From IMG/VR virus record IMGVR_UViG_3300044712_000123: 64,000 bases of DNA; one strand, 5' to 3'. Of this stretch, positions 6,929 to 32,468 are shown in pieces. Origin of the DNA: a virus. Lineage: Duplodnaviria > Heunggongvirae > Uroviricota > Caudoviricetes. Every line of letters starts with the position of its first letter. The first letter of the stretch is position 1. The notes below the pieces were generated by a model. The model worked only from the letters and a program-made list of their open reading frames with translations, searched no databases and was not told where the DNA came from. Made by a program: the position numbers and the translations under genes.

Positions 6929-7047
6929 CTTTTGGGCAACTACGAGGTTGACGATAAAAGCATAACTTGCTATACTACACACATGTTCTGAAAAATTCAG
7001 GACGAAAAACAAGTTGTGAAGTTTGGGCAAGTTAGTGAAAAAAGTTG

Positions 7048-7076
7048 TTGACAACAAATCACTAAGGTGCTACAAT
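7048..7076 (+). promoter_or_regulatory. sigma70-type promoter
   Basis: TTGACA-17-TACAAT. Confidence 0.7.
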
Positions 7077-7153
7077 TCATACATGAATTAACAAAAGGCA
7101 TGAAAAACAGCCTTAAAAAGACGAAATTTTTAACCAGGACTAAATATCTTACT

Positions 7154-7321
7154 ATGAAAAACATTGCATGTCAAACTGCTAAACATTCCGGACTATGGTC
7201 AATTGCACCGCAGCAACCAGTGTTGGCTACGTTTGAGGGAACAATGTTACCTAGTATTCGCGGCTCATATAATGATGCGAGAATGCCAGGGAGTTTCATA
7301 GAAGGAGCAGGTTACGCTTAA
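7154..7321 (+). CDS. Putative 55-aa leader peptide of an attenuator
   Basis: Contains all 20 amino acids and 40 different codons; its 3' part is complementary to the downstream terminator arm. Confidence 0.65.
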   Translation: MKNIACQTAKHSGLWSIAPQQPVLATFEGTMLPSIRGSYNDARMPGSFIEGAGYA

Positions 7322-7386
7322 AGTAACTACTCTAACAAGATTATGAAACCCCTGGGAAACTAAAAAGTCTCAGGGGTTTTTCTTTG
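7286..7386 (+). terminator. Intrinsic terminator with overlapping antiterminator
   Basis: AAACCCCTGGGA (7346-57) / TCTCAGGGGTTT (7368-79) + T tract; CCAGGGAGTTTCATA (7286-7300) can pair with TATGAAACCCCTGG (7342-55). Confidence 0.85.
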
Positions 7387-7423
7387 TGTCGTAATAAAAC
7401 AACAGAAAGAAAATTGACAGTAA

Positions 7424-7588
7424 ATGGAAGATGTGATAGAATACAAAACTTCTTCTGATGACAAGAGTGATTGGTTAGCTAATCACACATTGTCAAAAGA
7501 ACAAGTTGCACAATTGATCCGTAACAAGATTGAACGTGCAAGACTCTATCAGCGCAAGGAGGACGAAAAATTCTTCTTTGATGACTGA
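7424..7588 (+). CDS. Small hypothetical protein (54 aa)
   Basis: Open frame MEDVIEYK...FFFDD. Confidence 0.5.
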   Translation: MEDVIEYKTSSDDKSDWLANHTLSKEQVAQLIRNKIERARLYQRKEDEKFFFDD

Positions 7589-7754
7589 TAGAAAAGTGTT
7601 GAATAAGTGCGTAAAGCCCAGGGAACGAGGCCCTGAAAGAACACTATAATAATCTTTAAACGGGCGGACAGTAGGATGAAGTCTGTGGCGTTAACGCAGA
7701 TTGTAAAATCACTGGGTAGGGTATTGACCCTATCATGTCGTGTAGAAATACACG

Positions 7755-7837
7755 GCATTCTAAAACATACTAAACTCATATGCAGCCTAGTGCATTGTGT
7801 CCGTGGCGTAGCAGGTTATAAGTGTGTTTTAGAATGC
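7755..7837 (+). repeat. Stem-bounded element, copy 1 of CATTCTAAAACA..AGTGTGTTTYAGAAT family
   Basis: Terminal inverted repeat similar to those at 20963 and 21269. Confidence 0.6.
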
Positions 7838-7898: not shown

Positions 7899-7976
7899 TC
7901 CGTGAGAGCAAGCAAGGTGTGGGCGTCTGACTGTTAATCAGAAATGAGCCTGGTTCGATCCCAGGTCACGGAGCCA
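7899..7976 (+). tRNA. tRNA-Asn(GTT)
   Basis: Cloverleaf, TCTGA ctGTTaa TCAGA, CCA. Confidence 0.9.
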
Positions 7977-7984
7977 AGTTAAAT

Positions 7985-8059
7985 GGTCTTGTCATATAGT
8001 GGTTATTATACCGGCCTGTCTAGTCGGATATCGGGGTTCGATTCCCCGCAGGATCGCCA
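7985..8059 (+). tRNA. tRNA-Asp(GTC)
   Basis: CCGGC ctGTCta GTCGG, CCA. Confidence 0.9.
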
Positions 8060-8069
8060 AGTATTTTGT

Positions 8070-8147
8070 TGGGGTATAGCTTAGTCTGGCCTAAAGCACT
8101 GGTCTTTGAAATCAGTATCATTGGTTCGAATCCAATTACCTCTGCCA
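8070..8147 (+). tRNA. tRNA-Gln(TTG)
   Basis: CTGGT ctTTGaa ATCAG, CCA. Confidence 0.9.
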
Positions 8148-8154
8148 ATTTTAT

Positions 8155-8228
8155 CTCCGAGAGATGTTACGGTAGCATCCCTGGCCTGGAACCAGGAAGC
8201 GGCAGTTCGACTCTGCCCTCGGTGACCA
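8155..8228 (+). tRNA. tRNA-Pro(TGG)
   Basis: CCTGG ccTGGaa CCAGG, CCA. Confidence 0.85.
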
Positions 8229-8233
8229 ATTAT

Positions 8234-8308
8234 ACTCAGTTCGTCTATCGGTAAGGACGACAGCCTTTCAAGTTGTAAAGACGGGTTCGATTCCCGTACT
8301 GAGTACCA
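8234..8308 (+). tRNA. tRNA-Glu(TTC)
   Basis: ACAGC ctTTCaa GTTGT, CCA. Confidence 0.9.
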
Positions 8309-8311
8309 AGT

Positions 8312-8397
8312 TTTGTAGTGACGCCACAGTCGTAAGAGCCAGCTGGAACGAGAAGACAAAAAGCCTAAGTGTGCAGATGGGCTCGCACAGCTACAAA
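8312..8397 (+). ncRNA. Stem-closed small RNA of unknown type
   Basis: TTTGTAG/CTACAAA closing stem, internal TGTGC..GCACA hairpin. Confidence 0.4.
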
Positions 8398-8406
8398 TTA
8401 ATTAAT

Positions 8407-8493
8407 GCGTTGTGTTCCCTGTCGCCGGCTGTAACCCGGTGGTCATATTAAGCAGGGTGGCGGCAAGAGGTTCGATTCCTTCACAACGCACCA
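8407..8493 (+). tRNA. Atypical tRNA-Tyr(GTA)-like RNA lacking a canonical D-arm
   Basis: GCGTTGT/ACAACGC-A-CCA, GCCGG ctGTAac CCGGT, GGTTCGATTCC; only about 10 nt between acceptor and anticodon stems. Confidence 0.6.
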
Positions 8494-8498
8494 ATCAT

Positions 8499-8573
8499 GG
8501 GGGCAGCAGAGGGCTGCGGAGATGCCTTGCAAGTATCTTGTCTAGAGGGGTTCGATACCCCCGGCCTCCACCA
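8499..8573 (+). tRNA. tRNA-Ala(TGC), reduced D-arm
   Basis: G3.U70, GATGC ctTGCaa GTATC, CCA. Confidence 0.75.
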
Positions 8574-8579
8574 AACAAT

Positions 8580-8654
8580 GGGCTGTTAGTGATAATGGGA
8601 GCACGGGGGCTTTGCACGTCCTAGGTAAGAGTTCGATTCTCTTACGGTCCACCA
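8580..8654 (+). tRNA. tRNA-Ala(TGC)
   Basis: G3.U70, GGGGC ttTGCac GTCCT, CCA. Confidence 0.88.
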
Positions 8655-8659
8655 GTTTT

Positions 8660-8724
8660 AGGATAGTAACAGCAACATTTATACTCTGAACTTTTAATTC
8701 AACCAGTAAAAATTCTATCCTGTT
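8660..8724 (+). ncRNA. CAGCAA-module RNA carrying a Lys(TTT) anticodon stem-loop
   Basis: AGGATAG-TAACAGCAA ... TGAA ctTTTaa TTCA ... CTATCCT-GTT. Confidence 0.7.
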
Positions 8725-8730
8725 TTATAT

Positions 8731-8805
8731 ACCCTCTTCGCCAAGTGGTAAGGCCCCGGATTTTGATTCCGGTATTCGGTGGTTCGAATCCATCAGGGGG
8801 TGCCA
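8731..8805 (+). tRNA. tRNA-Gln(TTG)
   Basis: CCGGA ttTTGat TCCGG, CCA. Confidence 0.9.
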
Positions 8806-8944
8806 AGTTGTGTTGCAACTGATTTGAGGAACTTGCGTTTAAACCTCAACGAGAATAACAAAAACACGCAGCCAAATTTATGCCGCCGTAACTCAGTAAA
8901 TTATAGTCCCAGAGCTAAATATATTATGCTAAGAGGTCTATGAC

Positions 8945-9376
8945 ATGAAAAAACTAACATACAACTGTGTTAACTGCGGTAAAGAAAATAAATGGGGTGA
9001 CAGTAAAGTAAACAAGTATTGTGATAATGCTTGTCATGCCCAACATCGTAGAAAGATAATCCTTGAAGATTGGTTATCAGGAACTTACTTCAATAAAAAA
9101 GGTGTTCCACCTGAGGTAGCTAAAGAGTGGATTAGTGAACAACAGAATCACTCTTGTCTATTGTGCGGTATTACTGAATGGAATGGAAGTTCTATTGTCT
9201 TTCAGTTTGACCATATTGACGGTGATCCTGACCACAACACTAAAGAAAACATTAGAATGTTGTGTCCAAACTGTCATTCTCAAACAGAGACATACGGTGT
9301 AAAGAATAAAAAAGCGTCAGAAAGTAGACGGAATGTTTACAGACGAGAAAATTATAAAGATAAAAAGTCTCCGTAA
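8945..9376 (+). CDS. Freestanding HNH homing endonuclease
   Basis: CxxC, CLLCG..FQFDHIDGDPDHNTKENIRMLCPNCHSQT; stop codon lies inside tRNA-Arg. Confidence 0.9.
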   Translation: MKKLTYNCVNCGKENKWGDSKVNKYCDNACHAQHRRKIILEDWLSGTYFNKKGVPPEVAKEWISEQQNHSCLLCGITEWNGSSIVFQFDHIDGDPDHNTKENIRMLCPNCHSQTETYGVKNKKASESRRNVYRRENYKDKKSP

Positions 9377-9443
9377 CTCAGTGGATTAGAGTACTTGCCT
9401 ACGAAGTAAGGAGTCGGGAGTTCGAATCTCTCCGGAGACGCCA
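9367..9443 (+). tRNA. tRNA-Arg(ACG)
   Basis: CTTGC ctACGaa GTAAG, GTCTCCG/CGGAGAC, CCA. Confidence 0.92.
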
Positions 9444-9450
9444 AGATTAT

Positions 9451-9527
9451 CCTTGAGTTAAGCGGGGCCGCGTTACGGCCTTGCAAATAGTTAGTAATGT
9501 GTACTGCAACTTACACCTCAAGGTCCA
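9451..9527 (+). ncRNA. CCA-terminated non-cloverleaf RNA
   Basis: CCTTGAG/CTCAAGG-T-CCA; GGCCG/CGGCC and TTGCA/TGCAA hairpins; no TTCG loop. Confidence 0.55.
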
Positions 9528-9535
9528 GTTTTAAT

Positions 9536-9612
9536 GCGTGGTTAGCTCAGTTTGGTAGAGCAGTAGGTTGCCAACTTACAGGTCGCAGGTTCGAACCCTG
9601 TACCCCGCACCA
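9536..9612 (+). tRNA. tRNA-Gly(GCC)
   Basis: GTAGG ttGCCaa CTTAC, CCA. Confidence 0.92.
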
Positions 9613-9617
9613 GTTTT

Positions 9618-9678
9618 AGGATCGGTTCAGCAACTCAAAAGCTAACTTTGGATGTCTAGCGACAAAAACGATCCTGTT
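9618..9678 (+). ncRNA. CAGCAA-module RNA (short; possible Gln TTG loop)
   Basis: AGGATCG-GTTCAGCAA ... AAAAA-CGATCCT-GTT. Confidence 0.7.
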
Positions 9679-9703
9679 TTATTTTCTCTAAGTTTACTTA
9701 GGT

Positions 9704-9774
9704 GTGGCCATGTTGTAATGGTAGCAACCTAGACTGTGACTCTGGTAGTTCGGGTTCGAGCCCCGATGGTCACC
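9704..9774 (+). tRNA. tRNA-His(GTG), no encoded CCA, acceptor extended by a 10-bp flanking stem
   Basis: CTAGA ctGTGac TCTGG; TTTACTTAGG (9693-9702) / CCTAAGTAAA (9775-84). Confidence 0.8.
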
Positions 9775-9787
9775 CCTAAGTAAATTT

Positions 9788-9861
9788 GCTCTTATAGTTC
9801 AATGGTAGAACACATTCTTGGTACGAATGAAATCTAAGTTCGATTCTTAGTTTGAGCACCA
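9788..9861 (+). tRNA. tRNA-Thr(GGT)
   Basis: CATTC ttGGTac GAATG, CCA. Confidence 0.9.
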
Positions 9862-9869
9862 AATTTTAT

Positions 9870-9946
9870 GCATGGATGACAGAGTGGCCTAATGTGACTG
9901 ATTGCAAACCAGTTTTTCGTGAGTTCGAATCTCACTCCATGTTCCA
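9870..9946 (+). tRNA. tRNA-Cys(GCA)
   Basis: ACTGA ttGCAaa CCAGT, U73, CCA. Confidence 0.88.
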
Positions 9947-9954
9947 ATTTTAAT

Positions 9955-10028
9955 GCGTGGTTAGTTTAATGGTAAAATAGGACGTTGCCAACGTCTTGTC
10001 AAGAGTTCGATTCTCTTACCCCGCACCA
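9955..10028 (+). tRNA. tRNA-Gly(GCC)
   Basis: GGACG ttGCCaa CGTCT, CCA. Confidence 0.9.
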
Positions 10029-10034
10029 ATCAAT

Positions 10035-10154
10035 GCCGCTGTCGTCTAATTGGCTAGGACGCTTAAAAAGGTGACTCTGACAAGAGTACATACAGCAACA
10101 TAAAAATTCCATTCTAAGGAAGTTATGGAGGTTCGAATCCTTCCGGCGGCACCA
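10035..10154 (+). tRNA. tRNA-Arg(TCT) interrupted by a 44-nt CAGCAA-module insertion
   Basis: Removing 10063-10106 gives a 76-nt cloverleaf (CTTCC atTCTaa GGAAG, GCCGCTG/CGGCGGC-A-CCA). Confidence 0.75.
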
Positions 10155-10159
10155 GTTTT

Positions 10160-10282
10160 AGGATACATTCAGCAACTAATACTTACGTCAACTAGCGTGT
10201 TGAGAGTTCGAACCTCTCCTTCGTTCTTATGGACGATGTAGCTCAATTGGTAGAGCAGCCAGCAAGTAAAAAGTATCCTGTC
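10160..10282 (+). ncRNA. CAGCAA-module RNA carrying a circularly permuted tRNA (T-arm, looped acceptor, D-arm)
   Basis: AGGATAC..GAGAG ttcgaac CTCTC-CTTCGTT/GACGATG-TAGCTC aattggta GAGC..GTATCCT. Confidence 0.75.
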
Positions 10283-10289
10283 TTATTAT

Positions 10290-10364
10290 GCTCCATTAGT
10301 TCACGTGGTAGAATAACGGTTTTGTAGTCCGTAGAAGGCAGTTCAAGTCTGTCATGGAGCACCA
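10290..10364 (+). tRNA. tRNA-Thr(TGT)
   Basis: ACGG-t ttTGTag t-CCGT, CCA. Confidence 0.85.
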
Positions 10365-11047
10365 ATTATGTTCAGTAAGTTGTCGGCAAATTGTTTATTG
10401 TTGCCCACACCAGAATGCATTAAATCTCTTGCCGCATCCTTTATTGGATCGTTGTCAACTTCCTTTGCAATAATAAATTTTGATTTTATCTTATTGCACA
10501 ATAATTCTATAGCACCGAGATTTTTCTCCTCATTGAGAATATGATTATATTCACATGAGAACCATTCTTTGTAGTTTGCAACTGACATAGATGAATGAGG
10601 ATTATGTGCTATAGGTCTAGTACTATAGTTAAACATTTCAAATCTAGCCGGATCAGGTGGCCGTATGACTACGATCTTTGGTTTTAGCCGATCGATGTAG
10701 TAGCTAGCTAAACGATACGCAGTATCACTAGAGCAGCCTCCCTGACCTAAGTTAACGCACTTCAGTTTTAATGCTTTTGCTGTTTGGTATGCCCAAGTAG
10801 CTTCAAGCGGCAGACCCACACCTAATGTATGACTACAACCTAAAAACATAATAGAGTCATCATCGGTAAATTCGTCACATCTAAACCCGTGACTATTAAA
10901 TTTATATGTGAAGGATGCATCTATCCAACCGTTAGATTGTAATCCTTCATAGTTGTTTTTTAGATTATCTAAGTATTGTGTTTTACTGTCAGTGCCCAGC
11001 CATTGGGACTCTTTAAAACTGTAAAACGAAAATGATCTGAAATTCAT
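10352..11047 (-). CDS. Hypothetical protein, SGNH/GDSL-hydrolase-like
   Basis: FNSHGFRCDEF..FLGCSHTLGVGL..NLGQGGCS..DLMHSG; stop overlaps tRNA-Thr antisense. Confidence 0.65.
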   Translation of the reverse strand: MNFRSFSFYSFKESQWLGTDSKTQYLDNLKNNYEGLQSNGWIDASFTYKFNSHGFRCDEFTDDDSIMFLGCSHTLGVGLPLEATWAYQTAKALKLKCVNLGQGGCSSDTAYRLASYYIDRLKPKIVVIRPPDPARFEMFNYSTRPIAHNPHSSMSVANYKEWFSCEYNHILNEEKNLGAIELLCNKIKSKFIIAKEVDNDPIKDAARDLMHSGVGNNKQFADNLLNIIGAP

Positions 11048-11061
11048 TGTGTATTTATTAT

Positions 11062-11136
11062 GGAAGTATAGCACAGCGGTAGTGCATCTCCTTCATACGG
11101 AGCAGGTCAGTAGTTCGAATCTACTTACTTCCACCA
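11062..11136 (+). tRNA. tRNA(CAT): elongator Met or Ile2
   Basis: CTCC ttCATac GGAG, G1-C72, CCA. Confidence 0.85.
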
Positions 11137-11305
11137 ATCAGTTGAGACAACGTATCAGGCACAAATGGTGTCTTTTGTTTGTTATCAAACAATGGAACAA
11201 AAGTTTTTACAGTAGTGTAACTCTTTGAGTTTACATACTTGTATTGGCGGGCAACTTCGAATAGTTCGTTTATGCCATGATTAACTTTTTCCATACAATA
11301 TTTAT

Positions 11306-11379
11306 GCCCGGGTAGTTAAATGGAATAACACACCCCTGATAAGGGTGAGTAGCAAGTTCAATTCTTGCTCTGGGTACCA
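11306..11379 (+). tRNA. tRNA-Ile(GAT)
   Basis: CACCC ctGATaa GGGTG, CCA. Confidence 0.9.
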
Positions 11380-11386
11380 AGATTTC

Positions 11387-11463
11387 GCCTCAATAGCTCA
11401 GTTGGTTAGAGCAATGTGTTGATAACGCATAGGTCCCTGGTTCGAGTCCAGGTTGCGGCACCA
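11387..11463 (+). tRNA. tRNA-Ile(GAT)
   Basis: ATGTG ttGATaa CGCAT, CCA. Confidence 0.9.
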
Positions 11464-11467
11464 AGTT

Positions 11468-11569
11468 TTGTCATAGTGTAATGAGAATGCACGGGATCGC
11501 CACATAAATCTTTTTAAGTAAAGCGGTGGAACAAGGTTCAGGTACGGTAAAAACCCGTAGCGACAATCA
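11468..11569 (+). ncRNA. Degenerate tRNA-like RNA with enlarged central arm
   Basis: TTGTC/GACAA stem, D-like TAGTGTAATG..GCAC, TACGG taaaaac CCGTA in T position. Confidence 0.35.
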
Positions 11570-11572
11570 AAT

Positions 11573-11693
11573 TTCGTGATAGACGGTGGGCTTGAGTCCC
11601 AAGTAGCAGGCGTTTAAGTACGCATTGGTTTGACTGTGAAGTATGGTTTGTTAAAACTCGCTCATTCGAGACAACACCGAAAGGTGTCACGAA
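11573..11693 (+). ncRNA. Stem-closed structured RNA of unknown type
   Basis: TTCGTGA/TCACGAA closure; ACACC gaaa GGTGT and TGGG..CCCA hairpins. Confidence 0.4.
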
Positions 11694-11703
11694 AATCTAT
11701 AAT

Positions 11704-11779
11704 GCACCTTTAGCTGATATGGTTATAGCGGCGGTCTGAAAAATCGTAGAAGTTGGTTCGATTCCAACAGGGTGCACCA
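11704..11779 (+). tRNA. tRNA-Phe(GAA)
   Basis: GCGGT ctGAAaa ATCGT, CCA. Confidence 0.88.
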
Positions 11780-11786
11780 AACAAAT

Positions 11787-11878
11787 GGAAAGTAATGCAG
11801 CGGGGATGGTCCTGCGACTGGCCTTGAAAACCAGGTTCTCTTAACGGGGATGGGGTTCGACTCCTCTGCTTTCCGCCA
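11787..11878 (+). tRNA. tRNA-Ser(TGA)
   Basis: CTGG ctTGAaa CCAG, long variable arm, G73, CCA. Confidence 0.85.
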
Positions 11879-11884
11879 AACAAT

Positions 11885-11977
11885 GGGGTGTCTGGAGACG
11901 ATCAGGTTCGATTCCTGTTTAAGGTGGTCCAAGTCAGCGCGCGGCACGTTAGGGTTCGATTCCCTCTCACTCCACCA
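11885..11977 (+). ncRNA. Anticodon-less Ala-identity tRNA-like RNA with two T-loops
   Basis: GGGGTG/CACTCC-A-CCA with G3.U70; CAGG ttcgatt CCTG and AGGG ttcgatt CCCT. Confidence 0.6.
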
Positions 11978-11983
11978 AGTTAC

Positions 11984-12040
11984 GGGACAAAAAAATAGAT
12001 GCTGACAAGTATCTTAACTGCAATCAAAACTGTCCCGCCA
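11984..12040 (+). ncRNA. CCA minihelix carrying a permuted CAGCAA-like module
   Basis: GGGACA..AAAAAAT-AGATGCT gaca AGTATCT-TAACTGCAA-TCAAAAC..TGTCCC-G-CCA. Confidence 0.65.
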
Positions 12041-12048
12041 AACAATAT

Positions 12049-12125
12049 CTCTGTGTAGCTCAGATTGGTAGAGCGCAAGTTCGGGGAACTTGAGGCCGCA
12101 GGTTCAAGCCCTGTCACGGAGACCA
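12049..12125 (+). tRNA. tRNA-Pro(GGG)
   Basis: CAAGT tcGGGga ACTTG, C1-G72 A73, CCA. Confidence 0.85.
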
Positions 12126-12131
12126 AATTAT

Positions 12132-12206
12132 GGATGATTATTTCAGCGGTAGAATACTTCGTTGACATCGAAGAGGTCAGTGGTTCGATCCCACTATCAT
12201 CCACCA
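12132..12206 (+). tRNA. tRNA-Val(GAC)
   Basis: CTTCG ttGACat CGAAG, CCA. Confidence 0.9.
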
Positions 12207-12213
12207 AGCATAT

Positions 12214-12290
12214 GCCCCTGTGATGGAATTGGTATACATACTAGTTTGAGAGACTAGGTTCTGCAGGTTCAAGTCCTGTCTCGGGCACCA
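12214..12290 (+). tRNA. tRNA-Leu(GAG), short variable loop
   Basis: CTAGT ttGAGag ACTAG, Leu-type D-loop, CCA. Confidence 0.85.
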
Positions 12291-12304
12291 ATAAGGAGAA
12301 GAAG

Positions 12305-12478
12305 ATGAAAACAATTTACTTTGAAAACGTAAGAAACAAAGAAAAGTTCTTCTGCAAAAATCTGAAGGACATTCAAAAGATTGACGGCGTAGATTATCTA
12401 CGTGTGTTCAAGATGGGAACTCAGCGTGATTGTCTAGTTAAATTAGATAGTCTCAGAAAGATTCCAGAAACAAAATAA
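12305..12478 (+). CDS. Small hypothetical protein (57 aa)
   Basis: AGGAG RBS; MKTIYFENVRNKEKFFC...; stop abuts tRNA-Phe. Confidence 0.7.
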   Translation: MKTIYFENVRNKEKFFCKNLKDIQKIDGVDYLRVFKMGTQRDCLVKLDSLRKIPETK

Positions 12479-12554
12479 GCCGATGTAGCTCAGTTGGTAG
12501 AGCAGCGGATTGAAAATCCGTGTCTCACTGGTTCAAACCCGGTCTTCGGCACCA
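12479..12554 (+). tRNA. tRNA-Phe(GAA)
   Basis: GCGGA ttGAAaa TCCGT, CCA. Confidence 0.92.
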
Positions 12555-12562
12555 AATCAAAT

Positions 12563-12640
12563 GCCCACGTGGACAAATTGGAAAAGTCACTTCTCTCAAA
12601 AGGAAGAGTTCTCTCGGTTCGACTCCGAGCGTGGGTACCA
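12563..12640 (+). tRNA. tRNA-Leu(CAA), short variable loop
   Basis: CTTCT ctCAAaa GGAAG, CCA. Confidence 0.85.
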
Positions 12641-13224: not shown

Positions 13225-13302
13225 TTCAACACAATCGGTGAGAATCGCAAGATTCCTCAATAAATTTGACAAATAATGGTATTTGTCTTATAATCATAAC
13301 AT

Positions 13303-15486: not shown

Positions 15487-15692
15487 GTAGTGTAGTTTAG
15501 GCTGATGGACGGCAATCTGTTCGCAGTCTGATACTTGACTTCCTGAGACAGTAGCTTTGCCGAGCGAATCACAGGGAAGTTCGATATGGTGGAATTGGCA
15601 AACACAGGTGCTTTTGAAGGCGTCTGAGGTTAAACTCTTGTAGGTTCGAATCCTACTATCGATTTATCAAGCGTCAGCCTAAACTACATTAC
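15487..15692 (+). ncRNA. Long stem-bounded RNA containing a Leu-type tRNA body (15581-15662) with aberrant anticodon loop and no CCA
   Basis: GTAGTGTAGTTTAGGCTGATG / CGTCAGCCTAAACTACATTAC; GGTGGAATTGGCAAACAC; GTAGG ttcgaat CCTAC. Confidence 0.6.
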
Positions 15693-17483: not shown

Positions 17484-17567
17484 AGGCAAATAGATATCTT
17501 GTTTTGATGCATGGTATCTCAACGGTTGTAAGTGACGATGGGTGCTATCGGAACTTACGCAAATTTT

Positions 17568-17639
17568 GAAGTGAGTAGATGCTAGTTCGATTCTAGCCCT
17601 GCGTAAGAGTAGCATAATTTGGCAATGCAACTTACTTCA
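17568..17639 (+). ncRNA. YrlA-like permuted tRNA mimic (stem, T-arm, short capped acceptor, D-arm, stem)
   Basis: GAAGTGAGT/ACTTACTTC; GCTAG ttcgatt CTAGC; GCAT aatttggca ATGC. Confidence 0.55.
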
Positions 17640-17649
17640 TCACGATTAT

Positions 17650-17737
17650 GGAGCATTGGCCGACCGGTTAAGGCAACAGATTGCTAATCTGTCATTCAGC
17701 AATGGGTGAGTAGGTTCGATTCCTACATGCTCCGCCA
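17650..17737 (+). tRNA. tRNA-Ser(GCT)
   Basis: ACAGA ttGCTaa TCTGT, long arm, CCA. Confidence 0.92.
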
Positions 17738-20098: not shown

Positions 20099-20963
20099 GG
20101 GGGCTTAGCCTCATTAGAATAAGCATAGTGATATGCCCAAAGCGGTCGTCTCCTACAGACCCGCGCTAGAAATAGTTCATCTAAGCAAGCCTGCTTACAC
20201 CCGTGAGGGTGCGATCACTGATAAGACCGGTGGTTGTAACTGTAAAGCAAGTGTGTTGGAAAGAATGTCTGTTTATGTTCCCGTGAGGGTAAGACAGGCG
20301 GACAGAGAGTAACAGGTGGTGCTGACCTCAACACAAAACCAACTTGTCAACAGGTATAAGAAAAGGTAGTGTATTGATTCGAGGGGTTGCACCCAAGAGT
20401 TCGTATGCAGTTTGAGTGGTTAGTGGATATGTATGGTAACAGGCATATACACCGATCGTGAAAGACGACTGAGTAGTTCGCAAGACAAAAGGTACGTGGC
20501 GTGTTGTATTTTGTAGTCCAAAAGATTATGAAGCAACTGAGACAGCACATCACAGTAGGTTGTTATAGATCATTGGTAGATCAATTCTCTGTTAAAGAAT
20601 AGGCAGCAGGTTCAATTCCCGCTAACAAATAAAAAAGCAAAGTCTGTCTCGGTTGTATGTGAAAAGCATCTAATACTGGAGCCGCAAGGTAATTCAGTCA
20701 GACGTAACTCGCAAGGTGAAATCTGTTTATGCAGGAAGTTTCGTAAGTTGTTAGCGCAACTGAATGGCTCGCAAGGTCAGCGGAGTAGAAAGCGTAGAAT
20801 AGCATACAATGTCAAGTCTAATGCCTGACTTAAAACGGCGATGTTGGTAACAGACTAGGATACTCAGCAATGAGGCTTAGTGGAAATCAGAAGAAAGCAG
20901 TCTCGCAAGGATTGTAATAATGTCTGAGGTGTTACTCGGTAAGGATGTATTCTCAGTCCTCCA
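20099..20963 (+). ncRNA. GOLLD-like giant structured RNA (about 865 nt)
   Basis: ORF-free; many GNRA hairpins; GGGGGCT/AGTCCTCC end pairing; ACTGAGACAG/CTGTCTCGGT long-range pairing; located in a tRNA cluster and carrying an internal tRNA. Confidence 0.65.
20559..20629 (+). tRNA. tRNA-Asn(GTT)-like domain embedded in the giant RNA; no CCA
   Basis: GATC attggta GATC; ATTCT ctGTTaa AGAAT; GCAGG ttcaatt CCCGC; TTGTTA/TAACAA. Confidence 0.7.
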
Positions 20964-32393: not shown

Positions 32394-32468
32394 GCCTCGT
32401 TAACTCAGTGGTAGAGTGTCTCCTTTACACGGAGAAGGTCGGCAGTTCGAAACTGTCACGAGGTACCA
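32394..32468 (+). tRNA. tRNA-Val(TAC)
   Basis: TCTCC ttTACac GGAGA, CCA. Confidence 0.93.

Follow-up and report, generated by a model that had tools for sequence, protein, structure and literature searches.

What does a short open reading frame (ORF) that uses all 20 amino acids do at the head of a phage tRNA island, just before a strong terminator? The locus lies in IMG/VR record IMGVR_UViG_3300044712_000123 (Caudoviricetes), whose source is an uncultured giant phage of lake water/freshwater; the whole stretch of 64,000 nucleotides (nt) that was analyzed is called the window here. We put at about 0.7 the probability that this 55-codon frame, ORF55, is the leader of a ribosome-mediated transcription attenuator that senses the decoding of every amino acid by means of its complete, "pangram" set of 20. 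The computed support comprises the anatomy of the locus, a bistable RNA fold, covariation, selection acting to keep the full set of 20 in the part before the 5′ antiterminator strand, and synteny with a tRNA array. The parts of the switch are listed below; promoters were scored over the 12 positions of the sigma-70 consensus TTGACA/TATAAT and called strong at 10 or more matches.

7048–7076, plus strand: P1 promoter, TTGACA-17-TACAAT with an extended −10 element, 11/12 matches, inferred start near 7083.
7083–7153, plus strand: 5′ untranslated region (UTR) of about 70 nt, from an alignment of 31 distinct UTRs.
7154–7321, plus strand: leader ORF (ORF55), 55 codons and TAA.
7154–7285, plus strand: sensing zone, leader codons 1–44.
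7286–7300, plus strand: region 1, the antiterminator 5′ strand, codons 45–49 (Pro-Gly-Ser-Phe-Ile).
7304–7333, plus strand: stop-codon hairpin, GGAG 7304–7307 with CTCT 7330–7333 and GGTTAC 7310–7315 with GTAACT 7323–7328.
7342–7357, plus strand: region 2, the strand common to both folds, pairing with region 1 (antiterminator) or region 3 (terminator).
7346–7385, plus strand: intrinsic terminator, a stem of 12 base pairs (bp) with a 10-nt loop, then TTTTTCTTT.

The frame runs from its ATG through 55 sense codons to a TAA and draws on 40 different codons for its 20 amino-acid types, a recount that agrees with the figures given by an earlier reading of the locus from its letters alone (the sequence-only reading). 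As the property of a single 55-codon ORF this is ordinary, being shared by 8.4% of the 55-residue windows in this phage's own proteins; it gains significance because it is kept across relatives, and not from one sequence. These relatives were gathered with back-translated peptide patterns, which gave 9, then 35 IMG/VR loci and 7 metagenome loci, and with a profile search for the leader, which gave 159 proteins; composition figures come from the 120 of these 159 that were listed. A near-invariant motif of the UTR, AACCAGGACTAAATA (7132–7146), alone retrieved at least 119 further IMG/VR stretches. The leader family is large, spanning hundreds of lake-water phage contigs. Truncated entries (P0102, P0118) and entries that are frameshifted or have a replaced 3′ end (P0104, L035) were dropped from the statistics, and N-terminal extensions made by gene callers in P0003, P0079, P0103 and P0110 were cut back to the conserved start. 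The 73-residue product called in P0003, instead of the conserved 55-residue leader, arises because of an extra in-frame ATG at 7100–7102, in the loop of a UTR hairpin, that is seen only in this window.

All 20 amino acids occur in 113 of the 120 listed homologues, two of the seven failures being truncated, and in 132 of 138 distinct full-length peptides, whose identity to the leader of the window goes down to 42%. Every one of these 132 has the full set within the 39–47 residues upstream of region 1, as marked by its Pro-Gly-Ser-Phe codons, and among the 138 the C-terminal tail never supplies a missing residue; in the window, codons 1–44 hold all 20 and Asp41 (7274–7276) completes the set. Tyr, Cys, Trp, His and Asp are each present in a single copy in at least 125 of the 132 leaders, and because these five are mostly single-copy the set is fragile, yet it is kept. 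Singletons lost from their place (Trp, Cys, His, Val, Tyr) turn up at other positions: where Trp15 is lost a new Trp appears in '...PVW...' or '...MSW...', and where Cys6 is lost a new Cys appears in 'TCAIAP', 'TCIRG' or 'PSCPV'.

The conservation of the set was compared with null models in which the 773 substitutions mapped on a maximum-likelihood tree kept their sites and branches and had their target residues re-drawn. For the sensing zone these models left a mean of 22–30 of the 138 tips with all 20 (standard deviation about 9–10, maximum 82 in 3000 runs) against the observed 132, and for the whole peptide a mean of 47–54 of 138 with a maximum of 105, figures that ignore site-specific preferences and come from rows that share ancestry. 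A stricter control on the same related rows, with targets permuted within each column only, gave a mean of 27.5 of 138 and a maximum of 68, and a smaller first test on 25 peptides gave P of about 6 × 10⁻⁴. The comparison points to selection that maintains the complete set of 20 upstream of the antiterminator strand. Codon diversity is slightly above that obtained by synonymous resampling (1062 versus 1021, standard deviation 10.7), and both codon boxes of Ser and of Leu are used in 32/32 leaders and both of Arg in 27/32, again in related rows; this is only suggestive of extra codon diversity as a selected feature.

The placement of the set relative to region 1 is equally regular. The codon that completes it, usually Asp or Glu, lies 3–6 codons before region 1 in 132/132 leaders, never closer. 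A bacterial ribosome covers about 11–12 nt past the first base of the codon in its aminoacyl (A) site. A ribosome waiting at the last set-completing codon would hide little or none of region 1, and one positioned on codons 45–55 would cover it.

The RNA that follows the sensing zone can adopt two folds. Region 1 pairs with 7342–7355 through 6 bp, a bulged A at 7292 and then 8 bp, and the best duplex between the ORF and the terminator arm has an energy of −21.0 kcal/mol, compared with −10.6 kcal/mol (standard deviation 2.2) for dinucleotide-shuffled ORFs, none of which reaches the observed value in 2000 trials. The terminator pairs 7346–7357 with 7368–7379 in a G+C-rich stem of 12 bp, its T-run extends to 7385, and the hairpin alone is worth −17.4 kcal/mol. 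On both points the sequence-only reading was sound: it had described codons 45–49 as complementary, with one bulge, to the 5′ arm of a strong terminator about 20 nt past the stop, and the stem begins 25 nt, and the pairing partner of region 1 begins 21 nt, after the stop. RNA that ends before the 3′ arm (7277–7358) folds as an antiterminator rod of −28.6 kcal/mol, composed of the helix between regions 1 and 2 (helix 1:2) and the stop-codon hairpin. Over 7277–7386 the antiterminator and terminator conformers are nearly equal (−28.6 versus −31.9 kcal/mol), and masking 7277–7333, which mimics a ribosome at the end of the ORF, leaves the terminator alone to form. The TAA (7319–7321) sits in the loop of the stop-codon hairpin, and this hairpin buries a conserved Shine–Dalgarno-like AGGAG. 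As judged from sequence and folding, the locus has an antiterminator that would exclude the terminator and whose formation would be set by ribosome position, as in ribosome-mediated attenuators, and the intrinsic terminator stands between the leader and the regulated genes.

Each of the three helices covaries among the relatives. In the stop-codon hairpin all five inner pairs change on both sides (GATAC/GTATC, AGATTC/GAATCT, GTTCA/TGAAC). The sequence-only reading had proposed that conserved antiterminator pairing be looked for in related phages, and they keep it: across 29 loci 93% of cells in helix 1:2 are paired, two pairs change on both sides, and none of 500 shuffles reaches the observed covariation score. 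In the same 29 loci 98% of terminator cells are paired. The terminator hairpin averages −18.6 kcal/mol in 67 distinct relatives, and the duplex of ORF tail and terminator arm averages −18.2 kcal/mol over 67 distinct switches, against about −8 kcal/mol for shuffles or for the body of the ORF; these averages leave out 13 of 80 switches, which have ACCCTGG-type arms. The most telling case is L020, in which one position is altered in regions 1, 2 and 3 together (CCAGGG to CCAGAG, CCCCTGG to CCTCTGG and CAGGGG to CAGAGG) at the cost of a Gly-to-Glu change in the leader peptide. In L039, L053 and L054 helix 1:2 has C-G in place of a U-A pair, and the terminator takes up the same change as a G-U pair. 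Synonymous sites are frozen in region 1, where the codons TTC, ATA, GAA and GGA have third-position diversities of 0–0.18, as against 0.65 in the adjacent Pro codon; Pro codons nearby are saturated.

A sister subfamily (L061–L135, e.g. L072, L067 and L130) has shorter leaders of 44–47 codons that begin 'MMNKTC...', and most of them hold all 20 amino acids. It shares the UTR motif and the terminator and builds the competing helix from different sequence, with the stop codon itself inside the antiterminator strand.

That the frame is read follows from three features taken together, namely that the start is conserved along with the stop, that all length changes among the 138 peptides (49–59 amino acids) are in frame, with a C-terminal FIEG motif keeping frame across the length variants, and that nucleotide diversity is in excess at third positions (0.263, 0.237 and 0.349 at codon positions 1, 2 and 3). 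On this comparative evidence the leader appears to be translated, as the leaders of ribosome-mediated attenuators are, and since selection bears on its amino-acid content, that selection would act only through translation. The same observations bear on the proposal that P1 and the terminator delimit a non-coding small RNA of about 300 nt in which the open frame is incidental. Its UTR and 3′ end are indeed strongly conserved in nucleotides and its Shine–Dalgarno sequence is weak, as such an RNA would allow; the in-frame length changes, the conserved ATG and stop, and above all an amino-acid set under selection, which is readable by translation only, make this proposal very improbable.

If the frame is translated, its product could instead be a functional micro-protein that acts, for example, against the host early in infection; ORF55 would then have a promoter and a terminator to itself, and the pairing at its 3′ end could serve mRNA stability or 3′-end formation. 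A promoter, a small ORF and a terminator are a common layout of phage early genes, and the peptide has conserved motifs (MKN, PSIR, YND, FIEG) besides its excess of third-position substitutions. However, an ordinary protein fixes positions, and here Trp, Cys, His, Tyr and Val move while the set stays. The peptide motifs that are most conserved coincide with frozen synonymous sites, that is, with constraint at the level of RNA, and from the alignment the peptide appears weakly constrained except where synonymous sites are frozen too. The pairing excludes the terminator hairpin and so cannot stabilize it, and L020 accepts its Gly-to-Glu change to keep the pairing. As ORF55 also has no family match in Pfam or PHROG, we consider a micro-protein function quite unlikely.

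What the switch would control is set by the features on either side of it, which include a second promoter immediately past the terminator.

6948–6976, plus strand: P0, an upstream tandem promoter-like site, TTGACG-17-TATACT, 10/12 consensus matches with TG.
7414–7442, plus strand: P2 promoter, TTGACA-17-TAGAAT with an extended −10 element, 11/12 matches, inferred start near 7449.
7424–7588, plus strand: ORF54, a conserved small protein of 54 codons.
7899–12640, plus strand: first tRNA block (ARAGORN), a probable further target of read-through.

The downstream DNA is long enough in 26 loci, and in every one of them the leader stands at the head of a tRNA array on the same strand; the first tRNA lies 336–1262 nt after the leader stop, and no tRNA occurs in the 3–5 kilobases upstream. 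ARAGORN finds 49 tRNA genes in the window, the first at 7899, 47 of them up to 23001 and two near 32400. A promoter with at least 10/12 matches is kept 104–107 nt before the ATG in 23/23 loci (P1), and transcripts from P0 would enter P1. P2 lies about 30 nt past the T-run, and is found 87–97 nt after the stop in 17/23 loci and in 31/44 loci of a second set. In 6/23 loci, and in 13/44 of the second set (about 30%), the stretch from the terminator to the first tRNA is free of promoters with 10/12 or more matches. The near-consensus promoter that follows the first tRNA block is at 13266; terminator-like sites are found at 11157 and 12760.

ORF54 homologues follow the terminator directly in all loci examined except L027 and L028. 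In the window the ORF54 ATG is 4 nt after the −35 hexamer of P2 and upstream of the P2 start, a spacing of 4–5 nt that recurs in 23/31 P2-bearing loci, and its first codons span the P2 spacer and −10 element, so that promoter and N-terminus use the same bases. Because the ATG lies upstream of the start of P2 transcription, ORF54 should be translatable only from P1 read-through RNA. Read-through probably controls ORF54 and boosts the first tRNA block. The protein itself has one weak PHROG match, to a family of unknown function, and a search of the ESM Atlas gave no lead. In L027, L028, L065 and their relatives ORF54 is missing, the T-run is interrupted (…GGGGTTTCCAATT) and the first tRNA is about 335 nt on; this may be a derived, leaky or disabled form of the switch.

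This layout also admits a broader account, in which the switch responds more generally to ribosome availability or transcription–translation coupling (initiation rate, number of ribosomes, takeover of translation by the phage) and the regulated product is ORF54 and not the tRNAs. The weak Shine–Dalgarno sequence and the conserved UTR motif fit such a role, ORF54 depends on read-through in the 23/31 loci where its start precedes that of P2, and the tRNA genes have P2 and the internal promoters to transcribe them. It leaves unexplained, however, why each of the 20 amino acids should be present, often in one copy, upstream of region 1, why lost singletons reappear, and why in about 30% of loci no promoter separates the terminator from the first tRNA. 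We regard it as unlikely. None of these three alternatives accounts for both the relocation of singletons and the three-way covariation.

For the pangram attenuator we envisage the following course of events. Host RNA polymerase with sigma-70 would start at P1, and a ribosome would translate the 55-codon leader behind the polymerase. With smooth decoding the ribosome would cover codons 45–55, and with them region 1 and the stop-codon hairpin, while 7342–7385 is being made; region 2 would then be limited to region 3, the terminator would form, and the P1 transcript would end at about 7385. Were the ribosome held at any of codons 1–44, or absent, region 1 would be free, and the 70-nt antiterminator rod (helix 1:2 and the stop-codon hairpin) would fold before region 3 exists. 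Transcription would read through into ORF54 and add to the P2-driven transcription of the first tRNA genes, and a shortage or cleavage of any aminoacyl-tRNA would in this way raise the phage tRNA supply, as a feedback loop. In vivo, we infer, the leader is translated, the position of the ribosome sets the read-through, and tRNA levels change as a result.

In its widest form the proposal is that of a universal sensor of decoding capacity, in which one ribosome on a 44-codon track samples all 20 aminoacyl-tRNA pools (probably including both boxes of Ser, Leu and Arg) and any failure, be it starvation, host shut-off or a tRNA-cleaving nuclease, releases ORF54 as a protein made only under stress, along with extra tRNAs. 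We give this form a slightly better than even chance.

Several observations weigh against an attenuator of this kind. The Shine–Dalgarno sequence is weak, as the sequence-only reading had said: the AGGA ends 14 nt before the ATG, and a well-placed one is found in 20/41 of the phage's genes. An untranslated leader is predicted to read through, so the terminator would be idle unless initiation is efficient. The full-length fold has long-range pairing of the start-codon region with region 1, and in such a model this pairing might alter the behavior of untranslated RNA. Since region 1 also encodes part of the peptide, the covariation in helix 1:2 amounts to few independent events, and in the clade L012–L016 the pairing of this helix is weakened. 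Two metatranscriptome contigs, 7289–7539 and 7310–7464, bridge the terminator; they could originate from DNA, levels and ends cannot be read from them, and they were not used as support. Lastly, the tRNA island of the window has eight or more further near-consensus promoters of its own, and because of these and P2 most of its tRNA genes would be independent of the switch. The claim that read-through turns on about 50 tRNA genes is therefore not supported for this window. The idea of a general translation-capacity attenuator, also put forward by the sequence-only reading, keeps its core in the all-20 selection, the three covarying helices and the tRNA synteny of 26/26 loci, and loses that scope.

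Among known systems the classical attenuators offer a first comparison. Their leaders (trpL, hisL, pheL, leuL, thrL, the multivalent ilvL, and that of pheST) have 14–32 codons with runs of codons for 1–3 amino acids, fold in four segments, and lead to termination when translation is absent. The phage element resembles them in its translated leader and its intrinsic terminator, and in that the position of the ribosome decides which of the mutually exclusive helices forms, with stalling favoring the antiterminator. It differs in its length of 55 codons, mostly with one codon for each rare amino acid, and in its three segments plus a stop hairpin; it is also predicted to read through when untranslated and to control tRNA genes rather than biosynthetic genes. 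The regulatory run or enrichment of codons typical of attenuators is absent from the phage leader, which has the complete set of 20 instead, and because this set replaces the codon run we treat it as a variant and not as a classical attenuator.

T-box riboswitches bind one uncharged tRNA directly, without translation, and each serves one amino acid. Like the phage element, they tie tRNA charging to read-through of a terminator via an antiterminator; unlike them, the phage element would need a ribosome and cover all amino acids. A search of Rfam 15 with 7083–7386 found no leader family and no T-box, the only hit being a chance-level match to a microRNA model on the minus strand (24.9 bits, E 0.75).

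Of the systems described so far, the upstream ORF (uORF) attenuator of whiB7 (wblC) in mycobacteria and other Actinobacteria comes closest. It is activated by shortages of many amino acids, and the uORF of Mycobacterium smegmatis contains 19 of the 20 amino acids (PMC10274678). There a single Trp codon is both needed and sufficient for the response to Trp starvation, and read-through becomes constitutive when the start codon is lost (PMC10274678). These experiments demonstrate that a single codon can act as a sensor in a switch of this kind (PMC10274678). The whiB7 uORF varies widely between species, the version of Mycobacterium tuberculosis is without several amino acids, and it is enriched in Ala (PMC10274678). 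As compared here, the two systems would work alike: each has a long uORF of mixed composition and an intrinsic terminator with a competing antiterminator, each reads through when ribosomes stall at codons of many different amino acids, each is set to "go" by default, and a ribosome at the end of the frame means "stop". The phage switch is nevertheless not a member of the whiB7 type. There is no sequence relation, the complete set is conserved in the phage leader and has not been reported to be so for whiB7, and the output is a small ORF with tRNA genes instead of a transcription factor for drug resistance; downstream lie ORF54 and tRNAs, with no WhiB7/WblC, and the promoters are phage promoters of sigma-70 type. 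What is new relative to known systems is the complete amino-acid set as a conserved trait and the presence of tRNA genes behind the switch.

If this interpretation is correct, control of tRNA genes by attenuation would be known here for the first time, and so would a leader peptide whose selected trait is a complete amino-acid set. With such a leader, phages could probe the entire decoding machinery by means of a single ribosome, and the element, if working, would be a compact natural biosensor for any translation stress; more broadly, the leader indicates that a peptide's composition, as opposed to its sequence, can be the target of selection. Phage tRNA genes are partly understood as a counter-measure to host defenses that cleave tRNA. 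To our knowledge little has been described of their regulation, and no tRNA gene is reported to be under leader-peptide attenuation. Our literature search likewise found no published description of an all-20 leader or of the attenuation of tRNA genes.

The UTR that precedes the leader has features of its own. A hairpin of AAGGC (7095–7099) and GCCTT (7110–7114) is followed by an A/U-rich stretch and then by the near-invariant motif, which contains the only Shine–Dalgarno-like AGGA. By inspection of the 31 distinct UTRs, changes in one arm of the hairpin are matched by compensating changes in the other (GGC/GCC, GUG/CAC, GCGC/GCG, GCAU/AUGC), whereas RNAalifold on the alignment of the 31 UTRs gave no consensus structure.

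Three candidate elements were set aside. A pairing of a UTR CCAGG with region 2 was dropped: L020 alters both, but its relative L055 has a changed UTR and an unchanged terminator. A TATAAT within the ORF (codons Tyr-Asn) was rejected as a promoter, being absent in the 'NYD' variants and having no −35 element; this stretch looks like part of a small self-complementary hairpin. A mini-ORF of 6 codons in the terminator arm is not conserved and was dropped.

Against the INPHARED phage collection the window has no relative by DNA and the leader peptide gives chance-level matches only; a large structural protein of the window has just a short domain match, to lactococcal phages.

Other elements of the region were seen in passing. 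Between ORF54 and the first tRNA, 7595–7780 on the plus strand is conserved across loci so strongly that a spurious frame ('MKSVAITQIVKSLGRV...') persists through it, and this segment probably encodes a structured non-coding RNA. At 7616–7672 a metatranscriptome contig of 57 nt reaches a depth of about 1758 in run X1. Among the tRNA genes is a gene for an HNH endonuclease (8945–9376, plus strand; PHROG 10822, E 5e-26). There are weak matches to YrlA (Y RNA-like) at 10178–10280 (34.2 bits) and at 17556–17655 on the plus strand (24.5 bits), the gathering score being 69. The tRNA called by ARAGORN at 15579–15665 (plus strand) has a four-letter anticodon (ttga) and a long arm and scores 35.8 bits with the Rfam tRNA model; it may be quadruplet-reading or otherwise odd. 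Finally, the island contains a full-length GOLLD RNA at 20496–20959 on the plus strand (RF02032, 215.7 bits against a gathering score of 150, E 3e-60), within which a tRNA-Asn (20558–20631) is embedded.

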